A stretch of 64,000 bases of DNA from Pseudomonadota bacterium (GTDB lineage: Bacteria; Chloroflexota; UBA5177), in NCBI GenBank assembly GCA_021324655.1, contig JAJPIP010000035.1, forward strand, positions 86,121 to 150,120. Direction: 5' to 3'. The position numbers and the translations under genes were made by a program. This document shows positions 46,241 through 61,218 of this stretch, one piece after another. The notes under the pieces were generated by a model. That model was not told where the DNA came from. It worked only from the letters and a program-made list of their open reading frames with translations, and made no database searches. Each line of letters opens with the position of its first letter. Positions within the stretch are counted from its first letter, which is position 1.

Positions 46241-46633
46241 TCAGGCCGTCGCTTGATCGATCTGATGGAGCATGTCGTCAATGTCGAAGGGTTTGGCCAG
46301 GACATGCGCTGCTCCCAATTCCGCGCCCCGGGCCGCCGCGTCGTGCATGGCGGTCATGACGATGATCGGGATATCGGCAGTCTGACGCTCCCCATGCAAG
46401 AGGCGTGCGACCTGGAAACCATCGACGACCGGCATCATGAGATCGAGCAGGACAACATCGGGACGAAACTCGAGGGCCGACTCCATGGCCGTTTCTCCCA
46501 CCGCCAGCCGTGTCTCGTAGCCCTCCAGATCGAGAACGCCGGAGATGAGCGTGGCGACATCTTGCTCGTCCTCGACGATCAGGACTCGTTTCGACACGAT
46601 CCCTCCCCGGAGGGGATACCTCCGTTTGCTCAT
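46241..46633 (-). CDS. Single-domain response regulator (CheY-like receiver)
   Basis: RVLIVEDEQD, then VVLLDLMMP with the phospho-acceptor Asp, and a conserved Thr/Lys region (IIVMTAM...LAKPF). The exact start within the ORF is uncertain. Confidence 0.7.
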   Translation of the reverse strand: MSKRRYPLRGGIVSKRVLIVEDEQDVATLISGVLDLEGYETRLAVGETAMESALEFRPDVVLLDLMMPVVDGFQVARLLHGERQTADIPIIVMTAMHDAAARGAELGAAHVLAKPFDIDDMLHQIDQATA

Positions 46634-46796: not shown

Positions 46797-49112
46797 ATGA
46801 CCACTGGTCCCCTTACCGACACGGCGCTCGCTCTCTTTCGGACCGTTTTCGAACAGTCGCCGACCAGCCTGCAAGTTTTTGCCCCGGACGGGTCCACGCT
46901 GGCCGTGAACGCGGCCTGGGAATGCCTTTGGGGGACATCTCGTGACGCCATCCAGGACTACAACATCCTGGCCGACGAGCAGCTGGTCGAGAAGGGCCTT
47001 ATGCCCCTCATCCGGCGCGCCTTCGCCGGTGAGACCGTCGATCTGCCGGCGATCCGCTACCAGCCGGACGACACTCTCCCCGGCATCGCCGGCATTCCGT
47101 ATCGCTGGGTAAGCGCGCGGGCTTTTCCGCTCCGGGACGGCGACGGAGAGGTGATCGGGGTGGTGCTCAGCCACCAGGAGATCGCCGACACGATGAGTGA
47201 GGACAGACGTCAGGGCCGGGAGCGGTTTCGCCTGACGTTCGAGGAGGCGCCGCTGGGGATCGCTCTCCTCGAGCTTCACGGCGAGGGCGACGTCGTCGAG
47301 AGGGCAGACATTCTGCAAAGCAACCGCGCCTTTCGCTCCTTTCTGGGCTACAGCGAGGAGGAACTGCGATCGCTACCATCTGCCGCCTATACGCACCCTC
47401 TCGACCAGGAGACTCAGTCGGCGCTCCACGCCGATTTGCTCTCCGGTCGCCGTGGAGCAGGGCAAATCGAAAAGCGCTATATCCGGAAGGATGGCAGCGT
47501 CGTCTGGGGCCGACTCAATGTGACGGCAGTTCGCCGCTCCCGGCGCTCCGTCGTGGCCATTGTGATGGTCGAGGACATCACGGACCGGCGCCGTGTCGAG
47601 GAAGCGCTGCAGGGAAGTGAGGAGCGTCTCCGCACCATCTTTGAGCAAGCGCCGATCGGGATCGCCCTGATCGATCGCGACGGCCGGTACCTCGCCGTGA
47701 ATCCGGCACGACGTCGCATGCTGGGCTACGAGGCCGACGATTTAATCGGCCGGCACTACCTGGAGGTCACGCACCCGGATGACGTCGAGCTTGACCAGGA
47801 AATCAACCGCCAGGCAGCGGATGCCGGACAGGGCGGCTTCCAGGTGGAGAAGCGCTTTCTGCGCAAGGACGGCAGCGTCGTCTGGTCGCACGTCACGGTA
47901 CGGACTCTGCGGGACGAGAGCGGCGACATCCGCTACTCGATCTCCATCACCGAGGACGTGACGGCCCGCAAGGAGGCGGAAGCGCAGCGTGCGCGCCTCT
48001 TTGAGGCCGAGCAGTCGGCACGCCGGCACATGGAACGGTTAGTGGCGGAGCGCGAGGCAGTCCTGGGCCAGATCGCGGAAGGGGTCATCATCGCCGATCC
48101 GGACGGACGGCTGGTGTTTGTCAACGAGGAAGCATGCCGTATCTATGGCGTGGCCGAACTGGGTGTCGGCCCGGAAGAGTACAGCCGCGCGTACCACGTG
48201 TTTACCCTCGACGGCGAGCCGTACCCGTCGCTCGATCTGCCGATGTCGCGCGCCATTCGGAAGGGTGAGATCACGACCAATGTCCCCCTGCGGGTCAAGC
48301 GGCCGGATGGGACGGAAGTGATCATCCGGGCCGGCGCCAAACCGGTGCGGACCGACGACGGTGTGCTGGTCGGCGCCGTGCTGACGGTGCGAGACGTCAC
48401 CGCCGAGTACGACGTGGAGCGGCAAAAGGATGACTTCCTCTCGGCCGCCGCGCACGACCTCCGGACTCCACTCACCAGCGTCAAGGGACGACTGCAACTC
48501 CTGCGGCGCCGCGCCCTCCGGGGAATGCTCGACCCGCCGCAACTGGCCGAGGATCTCGACCGGATCGAGAGCGGCCTGAATCGCATGACCTCGCTCATCG
48601 GCGAATTGCTGGACGTTGCCAACATTCAGATCGGACGTCCCTTGGCGCTTCATCCCACCGCGACCGACCTCGTCCAGTTGGCGCGGAACGCCGCTGCCGA
48701 TCAACAGAACGTCTCGGACCGGCACCATATCAGGGTTGATGCCAGGGAACCGGTCGAGGGGATGTGGGATGTCTCTCGTCTGGAGCGGGCACTCGCCAAT
48801 CTGCTCTCCAACGCCATCAAGTACAGTCCGTCGGGCGGGGAGATCACCGTGAAAGTCCGAGCAGACGGAGACACGGCAATTCTCAGCGTGGCGGATCGCG
48901 GCGTGGGTATCCCGGCCGGCGATCTGCCGCACGTCTTCGATCGCTTCCGACGTGGCGGGAACGTTGCCGGCAAGATACCGGGGACCGGGATTGGGCTCGC
49001 CGCCGTGCGCGACATCGTGGACCGCCACGGCGGATCGATCGAGGCGCGTAACCGGCCGGGCGGGGGAGCGATCTTCACGATCCGCCTCCCCCGGCACCCA
49101 GACGGCTCTTAG
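46797..49112 (+). CDS. Multi-PAS sensor histidine kinase
   Basis: About four PAS/PAC repeats (recurring KDGSVVW...V motifs). HisKA H-box (AAAHDLRTPLTS). HATPase_c N and G boxes (LLSNAIKYS, DRGVGI, GTGIGLA). Confidence 0.85.
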   Translation: MTTGPLTDTALALFRTVFEQSPTSLQVFAPDGSTLAVNAAWECLWGTSRDAIQDYNILADEQLVEKGLMPLIRRAFAGETVDLPAIRYQPDDTLPGIAGIPYRWVSARAFPLRDGDGEVIGVVLSHQEIADTMSEDRRQGRERFRLTFEEAPLGIALLELHGEGDVVERADILQSNRAFRSFLGYSEEELRSLPSAAYTHPLDQETQSALHADLLSGRRGAGQIEKRYIRKDGSVVWGRLNVTAVRRSRRSVVAIVMVEDITDRRRVEEALQGSEERLRTIFEQAPIGIALIDRDGRYLAVNPARRRMLGYEADDLIGRHYLEVTHPDDVELDQEINRQAADAGQGGFQVEKRFLRKDGSVVWSHVTVRTLRDESGDIRYSISITEDVTARKEAEAQRARLFEAEQSARRHMERLVAEREAVLGQIAEGVIIADPDGRLVFVNEEACRIYGVAELGVGPEEYSRAYHVFTLDGEPYPSLDLPMSRAIRKGEITTNVPLRVKRPDGTEVIIRAGAKPVRTDDGVLVGAVLTVRDVTAEYDVERQKDDFLSAAAHDLRTPLTSVKGRLQLLRRRALRGMLDPPQLAEDLDRIESGLNRMTSLIGELLDVANIQIGRPLALHPTATDLVQLARNAAADQQNVSDRHHIRVDAREPVEGMWDVSRLERALANLLSNAIKYSPSGGEITVKVRADGDTAILSVADRGVGIPAGDLPHVFDRFRRGGNVAGKIPGTGIGLAAVRDIVDRHGGSIEARNRPGGGAIFTIRLPRHPDGS

Positions 49113-49124
49113 ATCCTCTCGATC

Positions 49125-49457
49125 CTAGTGATGGTGGCCGTGGCCACCGCCGCAGCCGCACCCACCACCGTTGGCGGTCTGGATGCGGAAATTGGGGCCC
49201 ACCAGCTCGTCGGAGCAGTCTACCTGGGCATCCTCGAGGAACGGCGCCGAATCGGGATCGATGACGAGGGTCACGCCCCCCAGATCGACCTGTGTATCAT
49301 CCGGCTGCGCCTCATCGAAGCCCATCTGGAAGTGCGCGGAGCCGCAGCCGCACTGTGATGCGACGAGGATACGAATGTCTTGCGGCACGTCCGCGGGGCG
49401 AGCGTCCCTGGCCTTCTTCAGTTCCTCGGTTGCTCGCGGGGTGACGGTGATGTTCAC
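49125..49457 (-). CDS. HesB/IscA-family iron-sulfur cluster insertion protein (His-tailed)
   Basis: N-terminal MNITVTPRATEEL..., first cysteine in QCGCGS, C-terminal CGCGGG. Ends in GHGHHH. Confidence 0.55.
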   Translation of the reverse strand: MNITVTPRATEELKKARDARPADVPQDIRILVASQCGCGSAHFQMGFDEAQPDDTQVDLGGVTLVIDPDSAPFLEDAQVDCSDELVGPNFRIQTANGGGCGCGGGHGHHH

Positions 49458-49599
49458 GAAAGTCGCCTCCTTTTAGTCACCTGAGCATACCGCACGCAGC
49501 CGGGGGAAGGATTGTCTCGGCGTGGTCCTGGCCGCGCCTCGCGCCGCGGCATCCGCGAAACACAGCGAGTACTGTCCCCTCGTCCGGCTCGTGCGAGTC

Positions 49600-49842
49600 C
49601 TATGACGACTGGCTACCTGCCCCTTCCGGAATGGTGAAGCCGGCTTGCGTCAGTTCGTCGGCGACGCGATCAAGGAACTGCTCCAGACGATCCACATCGG
49701 CATCGGAGAAGGTATCCGGGTAGGAGAACGCCACCGGGTGCCAGTGCTTCTCCTCGTCGTGCCAGACGAACCCCAGCATGAGGTCGGATTCCTGCTCGAC
49801 CTCACTCTCGTCGGTTTCGGTCCAGCTGTTGTCGTTGTCCAT
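49600..49842 (-). CDS. Small acidic hypothetical protein
   Basis: 81 aa from the internal ATG with a perfect AGGAGG RBS. Highly acidic (DNDNSWTETDESEVEQESD). Confidence 0.4.
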   Translation of the reverse strand: MDNDNSWTETDESEVEQESDLMLGFVWHDEEKHWHPVAFSYPDTFSDADVDRLEQFLDRVADELTQAGFTIPEGAGSQSS

Positions 49843-49962
49843 GGCCGTTACCTCCTGACTTTCGTCCCCTGCAAGAATCGACCCTGTGCTTGCCACCAGT
49901 CTACGCGCGTAGTAGCATGCGCCTACAAAGCACTCAACGCCGCGGTATCAAAGGGGTACTAG

Positions 49963-50619
49963 ATGCAACTCACCGGAACCCGCAAGATGGACCTCGCCGA
50001 CCTGATGGATGCAGCGGGAAAGCTGTATGTCGAGAATCTGGGTCTCTTCATCGGCGTCTACGCCGTCGCCATGATCATCGCCGCCATCCTCACGTATGTC
50101 GGACACGGCGCCGGCTTCCTGGCAAGCTTGGCGAGCCTGGCCGGCTCCGCGGCGCTCATCAACGCCATCGCCGCCCGCGCCGAGGGGCGGCCAATGGGTA
50201 TCGCCGACGCCTATACCTCCCTGACGCCGAGCACGTACCTGCGGTTCATCGTCGCGTCGATCCTCTACTTCCTGGCCGTCGTGGTCGGCCTTATTCTGTT
50301 GATCGTCCCGGGTATCTACCTGATGGTGAAGTGGGTGTTCGTCCCCGAAGCGGTCATCATCGACCACGCGGGGATCGGACAGTCGTTCACGCAGAGCAGC
50401 CGCCTCACCGAGGGAAACTGGTGGCGGATCCTCGTCTATGGCCTGGTGCTCTTTATCCTCTTCGCCGTCCTGAGCGCGGTGGGAGCTGCCTTCGGCGGAG
50501 CGGGCGGAGTCGTCGCCAGCCTCATCGAGCTGTTCGCGGTTCCGTTCCTCTACGCGATCCTGGTCGACCTGTACTTCAACCTGCGTGAGGTCAAGGGCGC
50601 GCAGCTGGTCAATCCCTAG
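49963..50619 (+). CDS. Integral membrane protein (4-5 TM, DUF975-like)
   Basis: 218 aa with multiple hydrophobic helices. Gly/Ala-rich. Confidence 0.5.
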   Translation: MQLTGTRKMDLADLMDAAGKLYVENLGLFIGVYAVAMIIAAILTYVGHGAGFLASLASLAGSAALINAIAARAEGRPMGIADAYTSLTPSTYLRFIVASILYFLAVVVGLILLIVPGIYLMVKWVFVPEAVIIDHAGIGQSFTQSSRLTEGNWWRILVYGLVLFILFAVLSAVGAAFGGAGGVVASLIELFAVPFLYAILVDLYFNLREVKGAQLVNP

Positions 50620-50639
50620 GGAAAGCACGGCGATTCAAT

Positions 50640-50668
50640 CGGCGGGGCCCGGTTAGGGGGCTCCGCCG
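50640..50668. terminator. Putative hairpin terminator with T-run, between convergent genes
   Basis: CGGCGG...CCGCCG stem followed by GTTTCTTA. Lies between the + membrane-protein gene and the - MMPL gene. Confidence 0.35.
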
Positions 50669-50672
50669 TTTC

Positions 50673-52907
50673 TTATGCGCGCGCCGGAAGCGGCTCCGGC
50701 TCCTCCGCCATCAACGGAACGGGCCGTCCGCCGAAGCGGCGCAGGACCGGCGGCAGCCACCAGTTCCACTCGCCCATGATCGCCATGATGGAAGGCACCA
50801 GCACGATGCGGATCAGGCTGGCATCGAGGGCCACGCTCGCCACCATGCCCAGCCCGAACTCTTTGAGCTGGATCTCGTGTCCCATGATCAGGCCGCTGAA
50901 GGCCAGCACCATGATGACGGCGGCCGAGGTGATGAGCCGCCCCGTCCGTTCCAGCCCGTAGGCGACACTGGCGTTGTTCTGCCCCGTCGCCAACCAGCGC
51001 TCGCGGATCCGGCTCAGCAGGAAGACCTCGTAGTCCATGGAGAGGCCGAAGAGGAAGGCAAAGAGGAAGATCGGCACCCAGGAGGCCACGCCACTCTCCG
51101 GAGAGAAGCCGAGGACCTGGTGACCGACGCCTCGCTGGAAAACGAGCTGTAAGACGCCGTACGACGCGCTCACCGACAGCAGATTGAGGAGGACCGCCTT
51201 GAGCGGAAGGAAAACAGAGCGGAAGGCGAGGAAGAGGAACAGGTAGCTCAGGGCCAGGACCAGCACGATGATGAGCGGGAACTTGTCGTACATGGCGATG
51301 TTGAACGACGTGTAGGTGGCCTGGGCGCCTCCTACATAGACGGCGTCACCCGGCAGGAGGTGCCGCTGTCCCGGCTTCAACTGGGAGGCCAGGCGTTCCA
51401 CCAGCTGCTCGGCCTGCCGCGTACCGACCTCGTGGCGCGGGATCACGGTGACGATCGCCGTGCGCAGGTCGGGGCTGATCACGCGCCCGGTGACGAGGTG
51501 AAGGGCGACGGGATTCCCGAGAAATTCGGCCGGACCGCTAACGCTCTTCACTTCCGGATCACGCCGCAATTGCCCTTCCAGGCGCGCAAAGTCGGCGCGC
51601 TGGGTCACGAGCGTCCCCGGTGCCCGGCGCTGAATCACAAGGAGCGTCGGATCGGACGTGGTATTGAAGTGGCTCTGGACATACTCGAGGCCGGTGACGG
51701 ACGCCACCTGAGGCGCATTCTTGAGAGTGCCGAAGGAGAAGGCCAGCTGGGTAGCGGGATAGGCGAGGGCCAGCATCAGAACCAGGACGGCACCGCCGCT
51801 GAGGAGCGGCCGGTGCATGATGGCCGTGGCCAGACGATGCCACGGGCCCTCCGATCCGGGACGGAGGAAGCGCACCGGCAGGACCCGCAAGCGATTGACG
51901 CGCGGACCGAGGATCGACAGGACAGCCGGCAGGAGGGTCAACGTGACCAACAGAGAGGTAATCGGCACCAGGATGCCGCCGATCCCCATGGATTGCATGA
52001 AGGACAGGCCGGTGAGGATGAGCGAGGCCAGGCCGGTGGCCACGGTGAGGCCGGAGAAGAAGACGGCGCGTCCGGTGGTGGCCATGGTGCGCACCAGCGC
52101 CGCCTCGACGTCGTTTTCCGCCAGATGCAATTCTTCTCGGAAGCGGTAGACCAGAAAGAGCGAGTAGTCGATCGCGATTCCCAATCCCAGAAAGGTGACC
52201 ACGTTGGTGACGTAGATGGAGGTGCTGAGCGAGTGCGCCACGACATAGACGCCGGCCAGCGCCAGGGGAATCGAGAAGCCGGCCACCAGCAGCGGCAGGG
52301 CAGCAGCCGCGACCGTCCCAAAAACCAGCAGCAGAATGATGATCAGGAGGGGGACGGCCAGCGTCTCGGCATTGGAGAGGTCCTGCTTGCTGGCGACGGC
52401 GTAGTCATGGTTGACGGCCGGAGTGCCGATGACATAGGTCGTGATGCCGGAGAGCCGGAGCAGCGAGCGCAGGTGATCGATCTGCCCTTCGATCTGCGGC
52501 TCGGACAGGCGACTCATCGCCGTGATGATGGCGGCGTGGCGATCGCGGCTGATGATCTGCGGATCGTGCGCGAGGAGAGGGTTCTCGATGGCGGTGACGT
52601 GCAAGGCACGATCGCCGGCAATGCGGTGCATCTCGGCGCCGATGACACGCGCAAAGGCGGGCGTGCCTGCTGTCGCGGCCGGATCACGCACGACGACCAC
52701 CACCGTCTGCTGATCGTTCTGGTGGAAGGTCCTGGCCAGAATCGCGGAGGCGGTGGCGGCGTCGCTTCCCTTCTTGCTGAAGTCACCTGGCCCCAGGACT
52801 TTGTTGACCTGCGACGCGCCGGCCAGGCCGACGGCGAGCAGGACGAGCCAGAGGCCGACAACGTACCAGCGGCGGCGATAGGCGAGGTGGGCGAGGGAGG
52901 CAAACAT
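50673..52907 (-). CDS. MMPL/RND-superfamily transporter
   Basis: 744 aa, 12-TM two-lobe topology with two large extracytoplasmic domains. N-terminus RRWYVVGLWLVLLAVGLAGA. MMPL-like internal repeat. Confidence 0.85.
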   Translation of the reverse strand: MFASLAHLAYRRRWYVVGLWLVLLAVGLAGASQVNKVLGPGDFSKKGSDAATASAILARTFHQNDQQTVVVVVRDPAATAGTPAFARVIGAEMHRIAGDRALHVTAIENPLLAHDPQIISRDRHAAIITAMSRLSEPQIEGQIDHLRSLLRLSGITTYVIGTPAVNHDYAVASKQDLSNAETLAVPLLIIILLLVFGTVAAAALPLLVAGFSIPLALAGVYVVAHSLSTSIYVTNVVTFLGLGIAIDYSLFLVYRFREELHLAENDVEAALVRTMATTGRAVFFSGLTVATGLASLILTGLSFMQSMGIGGILVPITSLLVTLTLLPAVLSILGPRVNRLRVLPVRFLRPGSEGPWHRLATAIMHRPLLSGGAVLVLMLALAYPATQLAFSFGTLKNAPQVASVTGLEYVQSHFNTTSDPTLLVIQRRAPGTLVTQRADFARLEGQLRRDPEVKSVSGPAEFLGNPVALHLVTGRVISPDLRTAIVTVIPRHEVGTRQAEQLVERLASQLKPGQRHLLPGDAVYVGGAQATYTSFNIAMYDKFPLIIVLVLALSYLFLFLAFRSVFLPLKAVLLNLLSVSASYGVLQLVFQRGVGHQVLGFSPESGVASWVPIFLFAFLFGLSMDYEVFLLSRIRERWLATGQNNASVAYGLERTGRLITSAAVIMVLAFSGLIMGHEIQLKEFGLGMVASVALDASLIRIVLVPSIMAIMGEWNWWLPPVLRRFGGRPVPLMAEEPEPLPARA

Positions 52908-52919
52908 GGAGGATCTCCG

Positions 52920-53468
52920 TCAGGATGGGGTATCGGGAAGCGGGCCGAGGCAGAGATGCTCCCAGGCATCGGCGTGGGCCATCGCCGGTAGGTCGAGCGC
53001 GGCGGCAACATTGAGGAACATGCCGAGGGCGAAGAAGGCGAGAACCTGCTCCTCGCCGGCTCCGGAGAGCTCTTCGACCAGGCGATACAGTCCGGCATAG
53101 CGGGCGCGAACCGCCGCCTGGATCTCCGGGTCGCCGGCGGCGGCGTAGGCATGCAATTGCAGCATCAGCTCGTCACGATGCTGCAGCAAGTCTTTGTAGG
53201 CGTTCCCCATGTTTTCGAAGGGATTGCCCGGGCGGCCGGCAGCGGCCGTAAAGGTGGCCTCCACTCGATCGAAGCCGCTATTGACCGTGGCGATGAAGAG
53301 GTCACGCTTGGTCCCGAACAAGCGGAAGAGATAGGGCTGCGAGACACCGGCACGGGCCGCGATCGCCTCGGTGGAGGTGCCGTGAAAGCCGCCCCGCGCA
53401 AACTCCACCACCGCCGCGCGGAGAATGTCCTCCCGCCGCTCCTCGGCCGACATGCGTACTGCTCTCAT
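52920..53468 (-). CDS. TetR-family transcriptional regulator
   Basis: N-terminal HTH (FHGTSTEAIAARAGVSQPYLFRLFGTKRDLF). Start at the internal ATG (MRAVRM). Directly upstream of and co-oriented with the MMPL gene. Confidence 0.8.
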   Translation of the reverse strand: MRAVRMSAEERREDILRAAVVEFARGGFHGTSTEAIAARAGVSQPYLFRLFGTKRDLFIATVNSGFDRVEATFTAAAGRPGNPFENMGNAYKDLLQHRDELMLQLHAYAAAGDPEIQAAVRARYAGLYRLVEELSGAGEEQVLAFFALGMFLNVAAALDLPAMAHADAWEHLCLGPLPDTPS

Positions 53469-53472
53469 GGTT

Positions 53473-53490
53473 GTTAGTGTACACTCACTA
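53473..53490. promoter_or_regulatory. Candidate TetR operator: perfect 10-bp palindrome AGTGTACACT inside TTAGTGTACACTCACTAA
   Basis: Seen directly 5-22 bp upstream of the TetR start codon, in the only AT-richer patch of this intergenic region. Confidence 0.4.
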
Positions 53491-53657
53491 ATACAGGGAT
53501 GCAAGCGGTAATCGTCGTCCGCAATGACAAACGGCAGCGTGGCGCGCTCCCAGGGCGTTTGCTTTCTGGAGGAGGACACGCATCGGGACGCGGCCCTTGT
53601 CCGCGTCCCGACGGAGAATGGGTTGGTCAGGCCGGTACTCCCGTCGTGCCCTCCCGG

Positions 53658-55628
53658 TTAGACGTGTCTCAGGACATGGAGGAGATACTCCTTGCGGTTC
53701 AGGGGGTTGTAATCGGTGCGCGGGCGGGTCGGAATGGGCTCGGAGGCGGGCTGGTAGCCGGCGAATTCAACCTCCAGCACGCCCTCGCCCCGGGTGGCGG
53801 CCGGCAGACGGCGCTGCAGCTCGTGCACCCGGGCCGCCCTGATGTCCCCGTCCAGGAGGTACGTCGCGCCCTGGGCCCCGGATGACTGGAGGCCGGCCTC
53901 GAGCCGCGCCAGGAGTGGGGCCACGGCGCCGAAGGTGTCGTCCGGAATCTCGAGGCGAAAGTGGTGGATCGGCTCGCAGACGATGGTGCCCGCCTCCTGT
54001 AGGGCGGCCATCAGAACGAGCGGGGTCAGAAGCCGGAAGTCTCGTGCCGAGCTCCCCGGTGACACGTAGTCCGACTCGATCAGGGTGACGCGGCAATCGG
54101 TCACCTGCCAGCCGCCGAGGCCCTGTTGCAGGTCGCTCCGAATGATCTCTGCCATGACGCGCTCGAACTCCTCCACCGAGCCGAAGACAAAGAAGGGGAC
54201 CGTCCCGACCTCAACGGCAAACCGGACGTCGATGCCGCTGCCGGGTGCGGCCGGCTCGACCCGGACGCCGATGGTGGCCAGAAAGGGGTTATCGCCCTTG
54301 CCCAGCCGCTCGACGGCCTCACCCGTGCCGTCCGGCCGTTCGACGCAGATGACCGATGTCTCACGGAAGGACACGTCGATGCCGAACTCTTCTGCCAGGG
54401 TCGCTCCGATGACCTCCTTCTGCACCTCGCCGTAGAGGGAGACGTACATCTCCCCGCGCCGGTCGTCCTGCCGCAGATTGATGGGCGGATCCTGCTCGGC
54501 GAGGCGGCTGAGAGCGACGTGCAGCGAGGCCTTATCGTCGGGACGCACCGGAACGACGGCCGTCTCCAGGGTCGGTGGGGCGAAGTAGTGGTCCTGGGAG
54601 CTTGCCGACGCCGCGCCGATCGTGTCGCCGATCCGGACCTCGTCGAGCCCCCAGAGCCTGGCGATCCGGCCGGCACTGACCGCTCCGCTGCGCACGCTCG
54701 CACCATGCTCGAAGACGGTGAGGGCGGTGACCTTCCCCGCCTGGCTGCAGCCGTAGCGCAGCCGGTCCCGGGTGTGAATTGTCCCGGAGAACAGGCGGAC
54801 GTAGGCAATCTTCTCACCCACCGGCCCCCGCTCGACCTTGAAGACGGTTCCCTGCAGCGGTCCATCGGCGTCACCGGCGCATGCCGGCAGCAACTCGGTG
54901 ATCCCCGCGGTGAGGTCCGGCACACCGGCACCGGTGATGGCGGAGCCGAAGAACACGGGATGCAGGAGGGCCTGACCGGACAGCCTTGCCAGCTCACCGC
55001 GGAGCTGCGAGTAGAGAAGCGCCGTCTCGCCGGCCAGATAGCGTCCCAGAAACTCATCGTCATGGTCGGCGATGACCTCGGCGAGCCGGGACGTGAAGTC
55101 CACATCGTCGGCGGCGAACGGCGCGTACCGCGCGTCGCGACTACCCGCCTCGATGGCCGATCCCAGCGGGATGATCGCCGGCGTCAGCCTCCGGCACATG
55201 CTCTCCAGCGTTCGCTCCGGATCCGCGCCGCCACGGTCGATCTTGTTTACGAACAACAGGGTGGGAATGTGCAGGCGCTGCAGGGTCCGCATCAGGATCC
55301 GGGTCTGGGGCTGCACGCCCTCGACGGCGGAGATGACCAGCACGGCACCGTCAAGGACGTTCAGCACGCGCTCTACCTCGGCAATGAAGTCGGGGTGCCC
55401 GGGCGTATCGATCAGGTTGATGGTGTCGTCGCCGATGGCGAAGGCGACGACGGCTGATTTGATGGTGATGCCGCGCCGGCGCTCCAGCGGCAGGAAATCG
55501 GTCTGCGTGCTGCCGTCGTCGACGCTGCCGATCTCGTCGATGACGCCGGCCTGGTAGAGAAGCCGCTCGGTCAGCGTCGTCTTCCCGGCGTCGACGTGGG
55601 CCAGGATACCCAGGTTCAAGTACCTCAT
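53658..55628 (-). CDS. Ribosomal protection-type GTPase (Tet(M)/Tet(O)/Otr(A)-like EF-G paralog)
   Basis: N-terminus [30 protein letters not shown]...RGITIKSAV...[42 protein letters not shown]...FVNKIDRGG parallels Tet(M) [30 protein letters not shown]...IDTPGHMDFLAEV...FINKIDQ. 656 aa, Tet(M)-sized, with EF-G domains II-V. ATGA overlap with the upstream ABC gene. Confidence 0.8.
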
Positions 55629-57436
55629 CGCGCGCCATCCCCCTCCGATACCGCCGCCGGACGCTCGCTCGCTTCCGTCTTCGCCTCGGCGGCCCAGAGA
55701 CGGCGCATCTCCTCGGAGGTCACCAGGAGTTCGGCGAGGGTGCCCTGCGCGGCAATCGCGCCGTCCTGCAGGACGATGACATGGTCGGCACGAGCCAGCG
55801 CCGCCCGGCGATGGGAGACGGCCAGGATGGTCCGGCCGCGTCGGCCGAGGAGCCGCTCCCAGAGGAGACTCTCGGTCTCGACGTCGAGGGCGCTCGACAG
55901 ATCGTCCAGCACCAGGAGCTGCGGGTCACGGACGACGGCGCGCGCCGCCGCCGTGCGCTGGATCTGCCCCCCCGACAGGCGCACGCCGCGCGGTCCGACG
56001 ACGGTCTCCGGCCCGGCGCTCAGTGCCGGCACGTCCTCGTCCAGGACGGCGAGCCGGATGGCGTCATCCAGGTCGGTGTCGGAGACATCCCGGCCCATCA
56101 GGATGTTGTCGCGGAGCGACTCGCTGAAGAGCCGCGGCACCTGGGGCAGGTAGGCGCTGCGCGGCGGCTGAAAGAAGCGCGCCGGATCGGTCACCGGCCG
56201 GCCGTTCCAGCAGATCTCTCCCTCCCGCACCGGCAGGAGCCCGAGGAGAGCGCGCAGGAGCGTCGTCTTGCCCGCCCCCACCCGGCCCGTCACGACGGTG
56301 AGCGTTCCGGCGCGGAGACAGGTCGTGATGCCGTGGACACCGCTCCCACCTTCGTGGGTGCAGGTGAGGTCGCGTACGGCGAGAGTCTCCAGCGGGTCTG
56401 CCGTCAGGGCCGGCTGCGGCGGGCGGGGCGAGGGGTGGACCGGGTGAAACTCGACCAGATCCCGCGGCGCCTGGGGCCGGATCAGCTCCTCCATGCGCCG
56501 CAGCGAGATCGACTGCGCGGCGTAGTCGCCCAGGAAGTTGCCCAGACCGGCCGCGGCCTGCGTGTTGAACTGCAGGAAGTACACGAAGAGGGCGAAGTCG
56601 CCCACGGTGAAGGTGTGCTGCGCCATCGCCCGGGCCGCCAGCAGCAGGACAAGGCCGATGCCGAGGTTGACCGCCGTTGCGGTCACGCCATCCGCCACCT
56701 GCTCCGTCACCTGCACGCCCACGGCGTGGGTCTGCCGCTCACGGTTGAGGGCGGCGAAGTGACCGACCATGCCGTCAACGGCACCCGCCAGTTTGACGGC
56801 CTGGACCGCGCCGAAGACCTCGGCCAGAAAGCCGGTGACCTGGTCGGTGGCACGGTTCGCCTCCCGGTAGTACTCACGGAGACGGTTCCAGGCCACCCAG
56901 GCGATCGGGGCGACGGCGAGGAGCGGCAGGAAGACGACAAGCGTGATCGTCAGGTCGATGCGGGCCATGATGACGATGGCGACGGCCGGCCCTATCACGT
57001 ACGAGGCCACCTCGGGAAACCAGGTGGGGAAGTCGGAGGTCTCGTCGACATCGCCGCGGAAGCGATTGACGGCAGATCCGGAGGGGACCGGCAACGGCAC
57101 CGCGCCGGGGCGGCGCAGGATGGCCGCCAGCATGTTGCGGCGCAGCAGGGCACCGGTCGTGCGTCGGAAGGTGACGCCGGTCCAGACCTGGGCGAACGAC
57201 GAGGCGAAGCGGGCGGTCTCGATGGCGATGAAGAGGGCGATCAGCGCCGGGAGACCCAGGCCAACCGCGCCGTGCCCGGTCAGACGGTCGAAGACCGCCT
57301 TGACGATCACCCCAGGGATCAGCTGGCCGGCCAGGGCGAAGAAGGCGGCCAGGAAGTACACGGCGTAGGAGGCGGGAGCGTACCGGATCAGCCGGAGGTT
57401 GAACGGCAGGGTGGCCAGCGGCTCTTGCTCACTCAT
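55625..57436 (-). CDS. ABC exporter, fused permease-ATPase (half transporter, subunit B)
   Basis: N-terminal 6-TM domain. NBD with Walker [11 protein letters not shown], signature LSGGQIQR, Walker [13 protein letters not shown]. Confidence 0.85.
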
Positions 57437-59178
57437 GCCAGCACCTCCTCCAGACCGGCCCGCAGCAGGGCACTGAAGCGCGAACGGGGATCCTGGACGA
57501 GATCCACCCGCCGGCCCTCCTCGGCGACCTGTCCGTCCTCGAGGATCATGATGCGGTCGACCCGTCCCACCGTGCGCAGGCGGTGGGCGACGATGATCCC
57601 GGTCCGTCCGGTCAGCAGCCGGGTGACGGCATGCTCGACGTAGCGCTCGGTGGCGGGATCAAGTCGGGCCGTCGCTTCGTCGAGGATGACCAGCCCCGGA
57701 TCACGCAGGAAGATGCGCGCGAAGGCCAGCAACTGTGCCTCGCCCGCCGACAGTCCCGCACCGCCGGCGCCGAGTAGCGTGTCCAGCCCGGCCGGCAGGC
57801 TCTCGTACCATTCCTCGAGGTCGAGATGACGCAAGACGTCGCGGATATCGGCATCGGCGACACCGGGACGGAAGAACGTCAGGTTGTCGCGCACCGTGCC
57901 GCGGAAGATTTGTACATCCTGGGTGACGACGCCGACGCGTTGCCGGAGCGTCTCGATCGAGAGGTCACGCAGGTCGACGCCGTCGAGACAGACCCTGCCG
58001 GCGGTCGGGTCGTAGAGGCGCGCCAGGAGGCGGGTGACGGTGGTCTTGCCGCTCCCGGTGCGGCCCAGCAGCCCGAGCGTCTCGCCGGGCGCCAGCCCAA
58101 ACGAGAGGTTGGAGAGGACGTCCTCGCCGTCCTCGTAGCGGAACGTGACGCCGGCATAGCAGACGGCGAGCGGACCGACAGGAAGAGATCGCCGGCCGGC
58201 GGGTGGGAGCGTGCTCTCGGTGTGAAGCAGGGAGTCGATGCGGCCGATCCCGGCGGAGGCCTGCTGGAGATCCTGCACCTGCAGCCGGATGGTGTCGAGC
58301 GGGGCCGCCAGCATCCCGATGTAGAAGACGACGAGGTAGGCGGTGCCCAGCGTGATCTGGTGCTGCAGGAAGAGGAAGGCTCCCATCCCCAGACCGATGG
58401 CGTAGGCCAGAACGTAGAGGACGTTGGTGGCGAAGAACGAGGCGTTCCCCGCCAGCCGGGCGCTGCGGTCGGTACGGAGCCGCATCTGCATGACGCCGAG
58501 GAGCTTCCAGAGGACGTAGGGCTCGGCGCCCACGCCCCGGATATCCTCGACGCCGGACAGCCGCTCCTCGATGGCCCCGTACTGCTCGGCGCCGGCCTGC
58601 CGATCGATCGCGTAGCGACGCACGGCGCGCCGCTGCAACGCCCGCAGCGCCAGGAACGTCGCCACGGAATATGCGGTCAGTCCCAGCCCCAGCCAGGGAT
58701 TGGTGACGGCGAGGATGACGAGGATCCCGGCCACGAGGAGGCCGTTGCCCAGGATGACGATCGTGAACTGCGAGAAGAAGTTGGCGAGCAGCGTGACATC
58801 GCCGTCGATGCGCTCGATCAGGGCGCCGGGCGTGTGCGACTTGTGGAAGGGAAGGTCGAGCCGCAGACAGTGCGCCATGAGGTCGGCGCGCAACCGGTTG
58901 GTGGCCTCCCAGCCCACGGTCTCTCCCACATACGTGGCCCCGACGTACACGATCTGCTGCGCGATCGCGATGGTGAGAAAGGCGACGGCGGCGGCGGTCA
59001 GCGTGCCGAGCGGACCGCCTCGCTGCGCGGTGTCGATGAAGTAGCGGACGACCTGCGGGTTGACGAGCTGCAGGCCGATGCTGGACAGGAGCAGGGCGGC
59101 CAGCAGCACCACACGGGAACGCTGCGGGCCTAGGTAGGCGACCAGCAGGTCGCCGTGCCGCCGAACAGACGGAAGCAT
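57433..59178 (-). CDS. ABC exporter, fused permease-ATPase (half transporter, subunit A)
   Basis: 6-TM domain. Walker [10 protein letters not shown], signature LSAGEAQL, Walker [13 protein letters not shown]. 4-nt overlap with the downstream ABC gene. Confidence 0.85.
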
Positions 59179-59593
59179 GCAGGGATCCTTTCGGATGGAA
59201 CGGTCGAGAGATCAGAAAGTGGGGTACGGGCCGTACGCGGGAAACGTGTCATGGAATAGTCCTCCGACTAGGTAGATGACGTGGGCGGATGGCCCGCGGC
59301 CCTAGCGGGGGAGAACGTTTCGCGCGTCAGCGCGTCTTCTCGGCCGGATCGTCCCGAAAGGACGGAGAGCTGTTAGCGGGCGCACCCATAGATGGTCGAA
59401 TCACACCGCGCATCGAACATCGATGCGAGCTCGGTTGCTGTGATCCTCATGGGTGCGCCTCCTTTGCTGTGTGCTCGTGGACACGGTACCACGCGAAGCC
59501 GGTTTTGGCAATGGCGGGGCGGTACTTGACAGTTCAACAAAAGTCTGGCATGATAGTTGCAGACACAACAACTAGGTCTTGAAGGAGGGTGCA

Positions 59594-60163
59594 ATGACAA
59601 CCGAAACACAGACACAGACGACGACCTGGCAGTTTGACACCGCGCACACGCTGATTGAGTTCGCGGTCAAGCACATGATGGTGTCCACGGTGAAGGGCCG
59701 CTTCACCGACTTCACCGGCACCATCACCGGGGATGTCAACGATCCGACCAACGCTCAGGTGGACGTCACGATCCAGGCGGGCAGCATCGACACGCGCAAC
59801 GAGCAGCGCGACGCGCACCTCAAGAGCGCGGACTTCCTCGACGTTGAGACCTATCCGACGATCACGTTCCAGAGCAAGAAGATCGCCGAGCGGCAGAAGA
59901 ACGTCTATACCGTCACCGGTGATCTGACGATCCGCGGCGTGACCCGGGAGATCGAGCTTGAGGCCTCCGTCAACGGCGTCGGCAAGAGCCCCTGGGGCCA
60001 GGAAGTGATCGGCCTTACCGTGACCGGCATCCTCTCGCGCCAGGAGTGGGGCCTGACCTGGAACGTCGCCCTGGAGACCGGTGGCGTCCTGGTGGGTGAT
60101 ACCGCTCGCATCAACATCGAGGTCGAGGCCACGAAGACCGCCCCGGCCGGAGCGCAGCAGTAA
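59594..60163 (+). CDS. YceI-family (polyisoprenoid-binding) protein
   Basis: WQFDTAHTLIEFAVKHMMVSTVKGRFTDF...TRNEQRDAHLKSADFLDVETYP is characteristic of YceI. GAAGGAGGG RBS. Confidence 0.8.
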   Translation: MTTETQTQTTTWQFDTAHTLIEFAVKHMMVSTVKGRFTDFTGTITGDVNDPTNAQVDVTIQAGSIDTRNEQRDAHLKSADFLDVETYPTITFQSKKIAERQKNVYTVTGDLTIRGVTREIELEASVNGVGKSPWGQEVIGLTVTGILSRQEWGLTWNVALETGGVLVGDTARINIEVEATKTAPAGAQQ

Positions 60164-60804
60164 TGGCGGGCGGACGAGAGCGGGTCCAGTTCTACTTCGA
60201 CCCGCTCTGCCCCTGGGCCTGGATGACCTCCCTGTGGATTCGGGAGGCACGCAAGGTGCGGCCGATCGACGTCGAGTGGAAGTTCTTCTCGCTGGCCGGC
60301 GTCAACGACCGTGCCGATCAGTGGCACGGCCCGCTGCGCATCGCCGCCCTGGCTCGCCGCGAGGGCGGCAACGAGGCGGTCGATCGCGCCTATCTCGCCA
60401 TGGGCCGCCTCTTCCACGAGAACAAGGATTCCTTCGACAAGATCGAAGAGCTGGCGGAGGTCGTGAAGCCGTATCTGGCCGATGTCGGTCTGCCGCCCGA
60501 TCTCGGGGAGCGCGCCCTGGAGGACGAGAGCACCCTGGAGGATGTGCTGCGCGAGCACACCGAGGCGGTCGAGAAGATGAGCGCCTTCGGCGTTCCCTGG
60601 CTCGTCACGGAGGGGGACGAGGCGGGCTTCTTCGGTCCGGTGATCGGGGAGCTGCTGACCGGCGATGCGGCCGGCGAGCTGTGGGACCACTTCCGCTGGC
60701 TGAGCGGTCAGCCACAGCTCTACGAATTGAAGCGTGGCGGCCGCAAAGCCATGCAGCCGCTCCCGGGTCTCTCCGAGCGGTTCTCGCCGGCAACGGCGCG
60801 GTAG
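60163..60804 (+). CDS. DsbA-like thioredoxin-fold protein (HCCA isomerase / DsbA family)
   Basis: N-terminus VQFYFDPLCPWAW, a single-Cys CPW motif. Start overlaps the YceI stop (TAATG). Confidence 0.6.
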   Translation: MAGGRERVQFYFDPLCPWAWMTSLWIREARKVRPIDVEWKFFSLAGVNDRADQWHGPLRIAALARREGGNEAVDRAYLAMGRLFHENKDSFDKIEELAEVVKPYLADVGLPPDLGERALEDESTLEDVLREHTEAVEKMSAFGVPWLVTEGDEAGFFGPVIGELLTGDAAGELWDHFRWLSGQPQLYELKRGGRKAMQPLPGLSERFSPATAR

Positions 60805-60919
60805 ACATTCGCCGGAGCGATCGGTGCCGTAGGGGACGGCCCGAGCCGTCCCGCCTTGGATTCGCAATCTCTCGATATCCAGCGCCAGGGCGGGCTGCCA
60901 CTCGGGGCAGCCCCTACGT

Positions 60920-61218
60920 CCAACCGCTGCGGCGGTGACCCGTACGGCCAACCGCCGCGGCGGTAGCCCCACCGGTTAACCACCGCAACCGCCCCTGCGT
61001 CCAACCTCTGCGGCGGTGTACCCACCGCCAACCGCTGCGGCGGAGGCCCCACCGGCCGCCACCGCGGTGGCCCCACCTGGCCAATCACCGCGGCCGCCCC
61101 TACGGCCAACTACCGCAGCCGCTACCCGTACGGCCAACTACCGCGACCGCTACCTGTACGGCCTACCACGGCCTCCGTCCCCCACGGCCTACCGCGGCCG
61201 CCGTCCCTACGACCGGCT
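60920..61218. repeat. Tandem array of ~11 degenerate 25-29 bp GC-rich repeats (consensus ~CCAACYRCYGCGGCGGNNNCCCNACGG), each with a short CCGC-N-GCGG hairpin
   Basis: Seen directly: head-to-tail units at 60920, 60948, 60976, 61001, 61028, 61056, 61081, 61106, 61134, 61162 and 61188. No unique spacers between units. Fills the convergent intergenic region between the DsbA-like gene and the homocysteine methyltransferase gene. Confidence 0.7.

Follow-up and report, generated by a model that had tools for sequence, protein, structure and literature searches.

Two adjacent putative drug-defence units in a soil Chloroflexota chromosome: a heterodimeric ABC exporter and an Otr(A)-group GTPase behind a conserved leader RNA, beside a TetR-MMPL pair

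Introduction

Five resistance-type genes lie in a row on one strand of a soil Chloroflexota chromosome, which raises the question whether they form a single resistance operon and which type of threat they would answer. The window, the whole 64-kb stretch of DNA analysed here, stems from a genome of 65% GC and carries the block at positions 50673-59178 of its minus strand (Table 1). Taking all parts of the explanation together, we consider it fairly probable that the block consists of two drug-defence units that lie side by side but are separate. The first, unit 1 (53658 to about 59511), would be one transcript that comprises a leader, ABC-A, ABC-B and the GTPase gene, and unit 2 (50673 to about 53504) would encode a TetR repressor and an MMPL exporter. 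The gene types are familiar; the shared leader and the ABC-ABC-GTPase arrangement appear to be undescribed.

Table 1. Features of the locus, in window coordinates
Feature	Position	Strand	Description
Operon promoter-like site	59483..59511	-	-35 TTGCCA (59511-59506), 17-nt spacer, TGn-extended -10 TACCGT (59488-59483)
Long hairpin enclosing uORF1	59347..59471	-	base includes start codon and last codons; MFE -56.1 kcal/mol, z -4.9
uORF1	59373..59450	-	25 codons + TAA (MRITATELASMFDARCDSTIYGCAR); AGGAGG 7 nt upstream
GAGAA box	59341-59337	-	upstream alternative partner of the anti-SD box
SD-sequestering hairpin	59250..59321	-	MFE -26.9 kcal/mol, z -2.8
Anti-SD box	59316-59310	-	GUUCUCC, pairs with second SD
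Second SD (SD2)	59265-59261	-	GGAGG
uORF2 (putative)	59130..59252	-	40 codons, after SD2; overlaps ABC-A start codon out of frame
ABC-A	57433-59178	-	581 aa; Pfam ABC_membrane + ABC_tran; half-transporter (TMD+NBD)
ABC-B	55625-57436	-	603 aa; half-transporter (Pfam)
GTPase, Otr(A)-group ribosomal-protection-type translational	53658-55628	-	656 aa; five EF-G-like domains (Pfam)
GC-rich hairpin	53581..53613	-	13 bp; 45 nt after GTPase stop; candidate terminator/operon boundary; no U tract
TetR-family regulator	52920-53579	-	longest ORF, 219 aa; probable start ATG 53468, 182 aa
tetR promoter-like site and palindrome	53474..53504	-	TTGCAT-17-TACACT; overlapped by perfect palindrome TTAGTG-N6-CACTAA (53474-53491)
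MMPL-family (RND-type) transporter	50673-52907	-	744 aa; Pfam MMPL 273 bits, two stretches
Terminator-like hairpin	50640..50668	.	between convergent MMPL gene and gene 49963-50619; 11-bp stem, 10 GC pairs, then TTTCTT

Gene content and organization

All five open reading frames of the original prediction were found on the minus strand, and Pfam confirmed the family that had been named for each of them. Their third-codon GC of 0.77-0.89 matches the expectation for real genes at 65% GC. Identical proteins are present in NCBI (HZU11966-HZU11970, from a Chloroflexota MAG); the long form of TetR is absent from the protein collection, in which the other four proteins of the block are present. ABC-B overlaps both of its neighbours, ABC-A and the GTPase gene, by 4 nt, and both junctions are true ATGA overlaps as predicted (GCA-TGA/ATG-AGT and CGA-TGA/ATG-AGG). 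The GTPase stop is separated from the GTG start of the longest tetR frame by 78 nt, or by 189 nt if TetR starts at ATG 53468, and the 12 nt between the tetR stop and the MMPL start contain a GGAG. Gene content, order and overlaps of the proposed five-gene block therefore hold, but its reading as a single unit does not, as the TetR-MMPL pair comes with a promoter-like site and a palindrome of its own and the 3' genes vary in related loci.

The ribosomal protection-type GTPase

The placement of the GTPase on the ribosomal-protection side, rather than with EF-G or EF-G2, is borne out by several comparisons. In the PDB it scores 380 bits against TetO and 362 against TetM, compared to 244 against EF-G, and the respective NCBIfam scores are 720 for Otr(A), 689 for tet_protect and about 290 for EF-G. 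The alignment with TetO and TetM runs over the full length, and it confirms the Tet(M)/Tet(O)-like N-terminus that lacks the EF-G N-terminal extension. Identity is highest to an Otr(A)-like protein from Streptomyces chartreusis (57.5%, or 62.5% over the trimmed alignment), followed by TetB(P) (39%), TetO (36%), TetM (34%) and EF-G (26-29%). A tree that included proven ribosomal protection proteins (RPPs), EF-G and other paralogues, an analysis that had been suggested with the prediction, places the protein in the Otr(A) group with 100% bootstrap; its clade and the proven RPPs form sister groups, again with 100% bootstrap, apart from EF-G and the other paralogues.

Further signs are found in domain IV and at the C-terminus. 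Loop III of domain IV reads DYVSPGS, compared to LYYSPVS in Tet proteins and SYHDVDS in EF-G, and thus departs from Tet(M) in two residues (Y507V and V510G); domain IV also carries a 7-residue insertion. A C-terminal stretch of 12 residues matches TetB(P) (PLNKKEYLLHKL), an extension that EF-G does not possess. Both loop III and the C-terminal extension matter for Tet(M) activity (PMC4750697). The end-to-end Tet alignment, the Tet-type loop III, the C-terminal extension and the bootstrap together rule out that the protein is EF-G.

The GTPase remains below the NCBIfam curated cut-offs, as does its whole environmental clade (650-762 bits against a tet_protect cut-off of 775, with TetB(P) at 968). 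An "otr(A) group" of predicted RPPs has been described by Berglund et al. 2020, and homologues of this group that were expressed in E. coli gave a weak or no tetracycline phenotype (PMC7725328). In soil Actinomycetota and Chloroflexota, the clade occurs very widely as a single gene on the chromosome, and most of its members stand alone. We regard the protein as an Otr(A)-group RPP that would act in ribosome protection, and a tetracycline-class compound is only the best guess for the drug.

The ABC exporter pair

The two predicted ABC exporters turned out to be the halves of a pair. In ABC-A the catalytic site follows the consensus, with LVILDE as Walker B motif, whereas the signature deviates (LSAGE). 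In ABC-B the Walker B motif LLVLDD has Asp where the catalytic Glu would stand, which marks a degenerate site, and the signature is the canonical LSGGQ. The TM287/288 heterodimer supplies the best prokaryotic PDB match of ABC-A (TM_0288), and a half-transporter chain annotated as "multidrug resistance ABC transporter" (5mkk_A, 6raf_A) comes next. To judge from these translated motifs, ABC-A and ABC-B form one type IV ABC exporter, a heterodimer in which one ATP site is catalytic and the other degenerate, and which would export a drug. Tetracycline-linked ABC pairs include Tet(46)AB and TrexAB (PMC12256430); the present pair scores 158-205 bits against the Tet(46)AB models, whose cut-offs are 1250, and is no closer to them than to MsbA-like or other exporters.

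The leader RNA and its conservation

ABC-A is preceded by a leader of about 300 nt with a promoter-like site, a 25-codon uORF (uORF1) in a hairpin of -56 kcal/mol and an anti-SD helix over a second SD. The promoter-like site is too weak for an E. coli-consensus scan, which missed it; that it is the operon promoter is suggested by conservation, as TTGNCN-17-TA(C/T)NNT preceded by TG occurs at equal distance from uORF1 in three related loci (L085, L166 and L167). A small CGUCC/GGACG hairpin follows the uORF1 stop, and the GAGAA:UUCUC pairing of the alternative anti-SD partner is part of the RNAalifold consensus. A terminator scan found no canonical (T-run) terminator in the leader, and as SD masking is visible instead, the leader would act on translation and not on transcription.

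The leader precedes the ABC pair in 7/7 loci checked. A covariance model of it (R1), which scores 127 bits on the window leader, also detects it ahead of two GTPase genes that stand alone and were not used for training (94 bits, E 1e-21, and 74 bits, E 1e-16), with no further match in about 2.3 Mb of loci; Rfam gave no match for the leader. In 9/9 leaders an SD-preceded ORF of 24-26 codons keeps its start and in-frame stop, with the SD spacing fixed at 7 nt. It has exactly 25 codons in the seven ABC-pair loci, in all of which its frame is open, whereas the other two frames contain stops in 7/7 and 6/7, and variation within the paired columns of these seven loci is concentrated at codon position 3. 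The uORF1 hairpin, too, is part of the RNAalifold consensus. Across loci, 94-95% of its cells are paired, compared to 26-51% in slid controls; compensatory change is seen in only 3 pairs, which 30/500 to 48/500 shuffles also reach.

The pairing of SD2 (GGAG) with CUCC of the anti-SD box is found in the MFE structure of 6/6 leaders that have a GGAG SD2, and the stem beside it varies by locus (GCUAGG/CCUAGU, CUGCGG/CCGCAG, CUCUG/CAGAG, UUCG/CGAA). uORF2, which we assume to be translated, is present in the window and in L085, L166, L172 and L083; L167 and L173 have a degenerate version of uORF2/SD2. The uORF2 stop of L083 overlaps the GTPase start as ATGA, and in L082 the same SD2 directly drives the GTPase gene.

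The TetR-MMPL unit

Pfam TetR_N matches residues 52-97 of the 219-aa long ORF. As the HTH begins only at residue 52 and the promoter-like site and palindrome lie inside the long ORF, the real start is probably ATG 53468, and its position 7 nt past the -10 suggests a leaderless tetR mRNA. The site and palindrome are the putative tetR promoter and its control element. TTAGTG-N6-CACTAA has no second copy in the 64-kb window, also when 2 mismatches are allowed (13/100 shuffles give at least one match), and a search of the ABC promoter region did not find it. The MMPL protein scores 296 bits against the NCBIfam MmpL3 model, whose cut-off is 1400, and is therefore not MmpL3. The 101-nt region at the hairpin behind the GTPase gene folds with -49.2 kcal/mol (z -3.5; 0/200 shuffles as stable). 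The T-run terminator scan did not report this hairpin, and as it has no U tract, read-through into tetR-MMPL is possible.

Proposed function

The best reading of the locus, which we hold to be reasonably probable, is intrinsic export and ribosome protection that translation stress induces. If it works like Tet(M) and Tet(O), the GTPase would bind the ribosome in the EF-G site, where loop III of domain IV would reach the 30S decoding-site pocket and a bound inhibitor would be displaced in a GTP-dependent manner. It is reasonable that pump and ribosome protection work together, and the ATGA overlaps would couple translation of ABC-A, ABC-B and the GTPase. Expression of unit 1 would probably be set by the leader, whose anti-SD box would mask SD2 at rest, so that uORF2 and the coupled ABC-A start would be poorly translated. 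A ribosome that slows or stalls on uORF1 may then change the downstream pairing, so that the anti-SD box pairs with the GAGAA box and SD2 is freed; the step from uORF1 translation to this switch, and with it the switching mechanism, is what we infer. The operon would thus be induced by translation inhibition, like those behind the ermC and bmrBCD leaders. Unit 2 would be an autoregulated TetR and MMPL exporter that answers to its own ligand.

Alternative explanations

The ABC-ABC-GTPase order recurs in related Chloroflexota, with overlapping or abutting junctions in L085, L172, L100 and the P0002 locus, and what follows the GTPase gene bears on the original model of one five-gene operon or island, in which TetR controls the ABC-GTPase genes and the MMPL pump. 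Co-orientation, short gaps and the possible read-through are in line with it, as is the case of one other clade member (L165), where an MMPL gene lies some 2 kb behind the GTPase gene. However, an APH-family kinase follows in L085, nothing in L172 and a methyltransferase in the P0002 locus, the ABC operon has its own conserved leader and tetR its own promoter-like site, and the palindrome occurs only there; we judge this model improbable. The architecture had also been called typical, which does not agree with an ABC pair directly upstream in only about 1-2 of the 42 environmental clade members whose upstream sequence is long enough. It is very improbable that the operon guards its host against its own ribosome-targeting product from a nearby cluster, although this is the role of otr(A) in S. 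rimosus, where it acts alongside efflux pumps (PMC6283892). On one side the window extends only 4.8 kb past the operon, but no PKS, NRPS, terpene, RiPP or aminoglycoside-type core genes occur in these 4.8 kb or in the roughly 50 kb on the other side. The related loci, too, carry no biosynthetic core genes and lie in unrelated, non-biosynthetic neighbourhoods, and a leader that senses translation stress would suit defence against exogenous drugs. As biosynthetic genes are absent from the 64-kb window, the suggested producer self-resistance is unsupported.

That the GTPase is instead a stress or housekeeping factor of the EF-G family, for instance in the rescue or remodelling of stalled ribosomes, and is linked to the ABC genes only by co-regulation under translation stress, is unlikely in our view. 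The wide occurrence as a single chromosomal gene, the scores below the RPP cut-offs and the weak or absent phenotypes of relatives in E. coli would fit such a factor, but not the sister position to proven RPPs, the retained RPP-specific loop III motif, length and C-terminal extension, or the repeated fusion to a drug-exporter-type ABC pair. Rather unlikely, too, is a leader that binds a metabolite or protein, or is merely a structured 5' UTR, with uORF1 a by-product of the hairpin and no stalling sensor. As the hairpin arms encode much of the conserved "peptide", constraints on the RNA could explain its conservation; the covariation statistics are weak, and the uORF1-to-anti-SD step is our conjecture. 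Against this stand the strong SD at fixed spacing, the frame kept open at near-constant length between stops in other frames, the excess of third-position variation in paired columns, and the drug-type exporter and ribosome-binding GTPase downstream, which fit the sensing of translation stress that we prefer.

Comparison with known systems

TetR-regulated MMPL/RND exporters are known from Actinobacteria, for example the mycobacterial TetR-MmpL5 systems. As in these, the TetR gene of unit 2 lies immediately upstream of the MMPL gene with a palindrome over its own promoter, but the genes are co-directional rather than divergent, an MmpS partner is missing, the MMPL protein is short (744 aa) and the host is a Chloroflexota. 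Like the GTPase, the RPPs Otr(A) of Streptomyces rimosus, TetB(P), Tet(O) and Tet(M) have five EF-G-like domains and no EF-G N-terminal extension. Loop III has the form Y-x-S-P-x-S and equal length in Tet(M)/Tet(O) and in the GTPase, whereas the Streptomyces Otr(A)-like sequences compared carry a long insertion in this loop, and at the C-terminal extension the GTPase and TetB(P) are nearly identical. Unlike these, the present gene is chromosomal in a Chloroflexota host and neither mobile nor in a biosynthetic cluster.

The ABC pair resembles the heterodimeric type IV exporters of the TM287/288 type in its adjacent half-transporter genes, the Asp for the catalytic Glu in one NBD and the deviant signature in the partner. 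Efflux and RPP genes also share one operon in tetA(P)-tetB(P) of Clostridium perfringens, where overlapping frames are likewise observed and two mechanisms are co-expressed, but there a single MFS pump takes the place of the heterodimeric ABC exporter, and pump and leader share no homology with those described here. A parallel in control is bmrBCD of Bacillus subtilis, a heterodimeric ABC exporter that is induced by ribosome-targeting drugs via a translated leader ORF (PMC4191407). It likewise combines a heterodimer with a degenerate ATP site and a short ORF in alternative stem-loops upstream. No sequence or Rfam relationship was found between the leader described here and those of bmrBCD or of ermC/cat leader-peptide attenuation. 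The present leader also differs in that it has two uORFs, no intrinsic terminator that could be found and SD masking as the visible device, and it also serves a ribosome-protection gene.

Organization of the gene block

The five open reading frames of the block are found on the minus strand with exactly the coordinates that the original prediction had given (see the table), and because their third-position GC content is 0.77-0.89, in sequence of 65% GC, they can be regarded as real genes. The junctions ABC-A/ABC-B and ABC-B/GTPase both consist of a 4-nt ATGA overlap. NCBI records of a Chloroflexota MAG contain four of the five encoded proteins (HZU11966, 11968, 11969 and 11970), and the NCBI product name for the window GTPase is only "translation factor GTPase family protein". 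An exact look-up of this GTPase returned no recorded contig.

Features of the block, its leader and other genes in the window
Feature	Position	Strand	Annotation
ABC-A	57433-59178	-	Pfam ABC_membrane and ABC_tran
ABC-B	55625-57436	-	Pfam ABC_membrane and ABC_tran
GTPase	53658-55628	-	Pfam full EF-G-type domain set
TetR, longest ORF	52920-53579	-	Pfam TetR_N
MMPL gene	50673-52907	-	Pfam MMPL
uORF1	59450-59373	-	25 codons, MRITATELASMFDARCDSTIYGCAR; AGGAGG 7 nt before
Mini-hairpin with the ABC-A SD	59185-59196	-	AUCC-GAAA-GGAU
Palindrome at tetR	53474-53491		TTAGTG-N6-CACTAA
Terminator-like hairpin	50640-50668		3' of MMPL gene
YceI-like and Rv2466c-like genes	59579-60804	+	Mycothiol-dependent nitroreductase / DsbA-fold (Rv2466c-like)
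Promoter-like site of the YceI-like pair	59526-59554		
Aminoglycoside 3-N-acetyltransferase family gene	1303-2127	-	Pfam Antibiotic_NAT, 317 bits
APH/EcKL-type kinase	28169-29275	-	Resistance-like
Metallo-beta-lactamase-fold protein	38937-39815	+	Resistance-like
Glyoxalase/bleomycin-resistance-fold protein	40844-41281	-	Resistance-like
Dynamin-family GTPase gene	11110-12837	+	
Dynamin-family GTPase gene	12834-14873	+	
Dynamin-family GTPase gene	14977-16608	-	
Receiver-domain protein, stand-alone	46241-46633	-	
Histidine kinase	46797-49112	+	PAS-rich

Family placement of the GTPase

The window GTPase comprises the Pfam domains GTP_EFTU, EF-G_D2, EFG_III, EFG_IV and EFG_C, with intact G1, G3 and G4 motifs (NKID present). 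The original prediction had taken it for a ribosomal protection protein (RPP). Its N-terminus is Tet-like, aligning with TetM/TetO from residue 1 and without the EF-G N-terminal extension. Against solved structures it aligns end-to-end with Tet(O) and Tet(M), at 380 and 362 bits, respectively, compared with 244 bits in two pieces for EF-G, and the NCBIfam models rank in the order Otr(A) (720 bits), tet_protect (689), TetM/W/O/S (433) and EF-G (about 290). In tblastn searches against plasmids, the identity is 57.5% to an Otr(A)-like gene of Streptomyces chartreusis, 39% to TetB(P), 36% to Tet(O), 34.5% to Tet(M), 33.5% to Tet(S) and 28.6% to EF-G. A neighbor-joining tree of 61 sequences with 100 bootstraps, in which annotated Tet(M), Tet(O), Tet(S), TetB(P), EF-G and other paralogues served as references, places the GTPase within an actinobacterial/Chloroflexota Otr(A)-type clade (100/100); this clade is joined with Tet(M/O/S/B(P)), again in 100/100 bootstraps, and EF-G and the further EF-G-like paralogues fall outside it with 100% support. 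The phylogeny that had been suggested as a check thus groups the protein with Otr(A)/Tet and not with EF-G/EF-G2. As the EF-G2 placement is not borne out by the tree, the RPP assignment stands at family level, with putative resistance activity and drug specificity.

The scores of 689 and 720 bits are below the NCBI curated cut-offs of 775 (NF012153, tet_protect) and 900 (NF000120, Otr(A)), and the GTPase is therefore not a curated RPP member. Seven relatives from the environmental clade are likewise under both cut-offs, with 650-746 bits on tet_protect and 692-762 bits on Otr(A), and the TetB(P) reference scores 968 bits on tet_protect. The GTPases linked to ABC genes form one group in the best tree, three of them (P0028, P0041 and P0035) being only putatively ABC-linked, through contigs of identical length, and as the bootstrap value is only 24%, we do not claim their monophyly. 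An AlphaFold2 prediction from an 18-sequence alignment was too poor for a fold search (mean pLDDT 46, pTM 0.34), and we therefore make no structural claim.

Loop III of domain IV, the length of this loop and the C-terminal extension have been reported to be important for Tet(M) function (loop III being Tet(M) L505-Y-Y-S508-P509-V; PMC4750697). The window GTPase has DYVSPGS at this site, which aligns without gaps to LYYSPVS of Tet(M) and differs from it at two positions (Y507V and V510G), EF-G having SYHDVDS. Its C-terminal extension aligns with those of TetB(P) (PLNKKEYLLHKL) and Tet(M) (NSRIDKVRYMFNKIT) in a region that EF-G sequences do not reach. Members of an "otr(A) group", mostly from Actinobacteria, have already been described as predicted RPPs, and the few genes of this group that were tried in E. 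coli conferred resistance only weakly or not at all (PMC7725328). In Otr(A)-like proteins of Streptomyces and Actinomycetota (from the comparison loci L174, positions 6001-8043, L005 and L002), loop III of domain IV is lengthened by an insertion of about 20 residues (SGYSPRQSHAHQGFDKSMSSTGYDFR). The window GTPase and its Chloroflexota relatives have retained the short loop of Tet(M) length, so that within the Otr(A) group there is marked variation in the loop that contacts the drug site.

The ABC pair and the conserved unit

ABC-A has a normal Walker B motif with the catalytic glutamate (LVILDE) and a deviant signature (LSAGE), and ABC-B has an aspartate in place of the glutamate (LLVLDD) and the canonical signature LSGGQ. 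This is the motif pattern of a heterodimeric exporter with one degenerate ATP site, for which drug export is a putative function, and among prokaryotic structures ABC-A is matched best by TM_0288, from the TM287/288 heterodimer. The pair does not reach any NCBIfam equivalog, MsbA, CydC/D, Tet(46) and SmdAB all scoring far under their cut-offs, and it is no nearer to Tet(46)AB than to the MsbA-like or CydCD models.

The order ABC-ABC-GTPase recurs in the locus of the nearest GTPase relative (P0002, 71% identity), with 4-nt overlaps and followed by a methyltransferase gene, in L085 (GTPase P0010), where an APH-family kinase gene follows, in L172, with nothing further 3', and in the more distant metagenomic locus L100 (59% identity). 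The locus L128 was rejected as a case of the same operon, as its upstream ABC gene is distant and apparently fused (26-36% identity). Among about 42 clade members of an unbiased soil-metagenome sample for which 1.5 kb or more of upstream sequence was available, only one or two have an ABC pair there; this arrangement is kept in a sub-lineage only. The GTPase occurs without the ABC pair in Microtetraspora and in the loci L082 and L083, and the closest homologues of ABC-A (82%, 77%, 72% and 70% identity) belong to ABC pairs without a GTPase; pump and GTPase are therefore modules in their own right, which some Chloroflexota have fused. The operon 3' end seems to be a variable slot for further modification-type genes, which are an APH-family phosphotransferase in L085 (9992-10945), with a start overlapping the GTPase stop, and a class I methyltransferase in the P0002 locus (11997-12701).

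Limits of the unit and the question of a producer locus

The original prediction had read all five genes as one unit of producer-type or intrinsic resistance, of which the RPP-type GTPase at family level has been retained, and the single five-gene unit and producer self-resistance have not. TetR-MMPL lies outside the conserved unit. A 13-bp GC hairpin is found 45 nt past the GTPase stop, in a region that folds at -49 kcal/mol (z -3.5), and the longest TetR ORF contains a promoter-like TTGCAT-17 nt-TACACT, whose -10-like hexamer TACACT is overlapped by a perfect palindrome, with an ATG 7 nt on (53468). These elements, together with the other 3' genes in the relatives, speak against one unit. 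With a TetR start at 53468, the HTH is as far from the N-terminus as is usual, and such a start also accounts for the lack of the 219-aa form in the protein collection. The palindrome is unique within the window, yet 13 of 100 shuffles yield such a match, and no second copy was found in the ABC promoter region with two mismatches allowed. The MMPL gene follows tetR after 12 nt and a terminator-like hairpin closes the pair, which from these signals can be read as an autoregulated exporter unit with a putative operator, with read-through from the operon being possible. In the comparison locus L165 (1923-6989), an MMPL-family gene lies about 2 kb 3' of the GTPase, from which it is separated by two small ORFs of unknown family, and proximity of GTPase and MMPL genes may thus recur, with one case seen. 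The histidine kinase, which is divergent from the receiver-domain gene, forms with it a pair a few kb from the MMPL unit.

Producer self-resistance finds no support, as Pfam scans of 45 ORFs across the window gave no biosynthetic core genes; they instead gave sugar-nucleotide enzymes, dynamin-like GTPases, a SNF2 helicase, phosphate transport, the PAS histidine kinase and the like, and the related operons sit in unrelated neighbourhoods. The block should accordingly be annotated neither as a producer self-resistance locus nor as a single five-gene operon; the resistance genes that it contains are nothing unusual in a soil bacterium. Resistance-like genes are also scattered elsewhere in the window (see the table). 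The three consecutive dynamin-family genes, the first two with a 4-nt overlap, look like a bacterial dynamin-like protein cluster.

Layout of the leader

The 400 nt that separate ABC-A from the divergent yceI-like gene have a conserved leader architecture, which precedes ABC-A in each of the seven loci for which DNA was available (the window, L085, L166, L167, L171, L172 and L173). A promoter-like pattern TTGNCN-17-TGnTA(C/T)NNT could be read in four of these (the window, L085, L166 and L167). On the other side, the YceI-like and Rv2466c-like genes are abutting or overlap by 1 nt, and as this pair is divergent from the ABC operon, its promoter-like site and that of the operon stand back to back in a stretch of about 50 nt. 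L172 likewise has an Rv2466c-like gene, at a distance of about 5 kb on the upstream side of its ABC operon.

The leader contains a small ORF, uORF1, which has 24-26 codons and is preceded in 9/9 leaders by AGGAGG 7 nt upstream. A single long hairpin encloses the whole of uORF1 from the start codon to the last codons (-56.1 kcal/mol, z -4.9), with 94-95% of cells paired, compared with 26-51% for slid partners. The uORF1 frame is open in every locus and the other two frames carry stops, and within the paired columns the variation is concentrated at third codon positions, both of which speak for a coding uORF1. As only three pairs show compensatory change, covariation support for the hairpin is weak. 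An alternative pairing of the hairpin 3' arm with a downstream copy of its 5' arm (GGGCGCACCC) was rejected, since in L167 and L173 the arm sequence is changed without a matching change downstream.

Past the uORF1 stop, the leader contains in this order a CUCUCC box, a small hairpin, a GAGAA box, a stem-loop and an anti-SD-like GUUCUCC box, followed by a variable hairpin and a second strong Shine-Dalgarno sequence, SD2 (GGAGG/GAAGGAG), after which a second small ORF, uORF2, runs across the ABC-A start codon. In minimum free energy folds of the stretch that is bounded by the anti-SD box and the start codon, the GGAG of SD2 is paired with the CUCC of the box in all six leaders with a GGAG-type SD2 (-26.9 kcal/mol and z -2.8 in the window), and the adjoining stem varies by locus (GCUAGG/CCUAGU, CUGCGG/CCGCAG, CUCUG/CAGAG, UUCG/CGAA). 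In the RNAalifold consensus, the partner of the anti-SD box is instead the upstream GAGAA box, a pairing that would give the leader an obvious alternative state. No terminator was found in the leader, and the window from 49000 to 61000 and the leaders of L082, L083 and L166 gave no Rfam 15 match at E<=1. ABC-A itself has a weak SD (GAAAGGA) within a 4-bp mini-hairpin with a GAAA loop, the stem of which varies between loci (GUUC/GGAC, GUCU/GGAC); with such a hairpin, initiation at ABC-A may be dependent on the translation of uORF2.

Re-use of the leader and a proposed switch

A covariance model of the uORF1 hairpin (R1), trained on the seven ABC-pair leaders only, was searched over about 2.3 Mb of loci, matches in L168-L170 not being counted as new because these are copies of the L167 locus. 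Exactly two new sites were found, L082 9738-9857 (94 bits, E 1e-21) and L083 177-300 (74 bits, E 1e-16), both immediately upstream of stand-alone RPP-like GTPase genes. These leaders likewise carry uORF1 (24 and 26 codons, respectively), the boxes and SD2; in L082 the GTPase start codon is served directly by SD2, and in L083 the end of uORF2 and the GTPase start share an ATGA overlap. One cis-element is thus found ahead of the pump or the GTPase by itself and also ahead of the two together. Nothing speaks more strongly than this shared leader for a common signal to which pump and GTPase respond, and this signal plausibly relates to translation.

The leader elements are directly seen in the loci, and from them we infer a switching path that leads from uORF1 occupancy to a shift of the anti-SD box. 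In the resting state, SD2 would be masked by the anti-SD box, which would result in poor translation of uORF2 and of the coupled ABC-A start, and the ATGA couplings would pass this effect on to ABC-B and the GTPase. Ribosomes that slow or stall on uORF1, the stop of which lies 2 nt from the CUCUCC box, would shift the downstream pairing, so that the anti-SD box could be captured by GAGAA and SD2 would open. We tentatively propose, as a possibility that falls somewhat short of being probable, that the leader is an undescribed ribosome-stalling sensor and that it defines, within a lineage of Chloroflexota, a small regulon for translation stress, in which it fronts an exporter, a GTPase, or a translationally coupled fusion of both.

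Significance and comparison with known systems

Otr(A)-group ribosomal protection genes are abundant in soil metagenomes, where they are counted as "tetracycline resistance genes". To our knowledge, almost nothing has been established about the regulation and native role of these genes, and cis-regulatory RNAs have been little studied in Chloroflexota, to which a leader-peptide/SD-masking element would be added. One conserved leader ahead of a GTPase, a multidrug-type ABC exporter, or both, provides a testable handle on the native function, as the antibiotics that induce it would show what Otr(A)-group proteins defend against in nature. If the proposal is true, soil Otr(A)-group GTPases would be inducible, intrinsic ribosome guardians, and in nature they might be directed against a 30S inhibitor from soil that is not one of the clinical tetracyclines.

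In the literature searched, we found no description of an ABC heterodimer translationally fused to an RPP, of this two-uORF/anti-SD leader, or of the re-use of this leader across pump and RPP genes in Chloroflexota. Each component of the system has a precedent. Otr(A) works together with efflux in S. rimosus (PMC6283892), and TrexAB is a heterodimeric ABC exporter that is able to confer tetracycline resistance (PMC12256430). Leader-peptide control of a heterodimeric ABC exporter is known from the bmrB leader of the Bacillus subtilis exporter bmrCD, which is induced by ribosome-targeting antibiotics (PMC4191407); the proposed switch would follow the same logic, as it would that of ermC-type translational attenuation. 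The fusion of ABC pump and RPP, in turn, is analogous to tetA(P)/tetB(P), in which the efflux gene overlaps the RPP gene.
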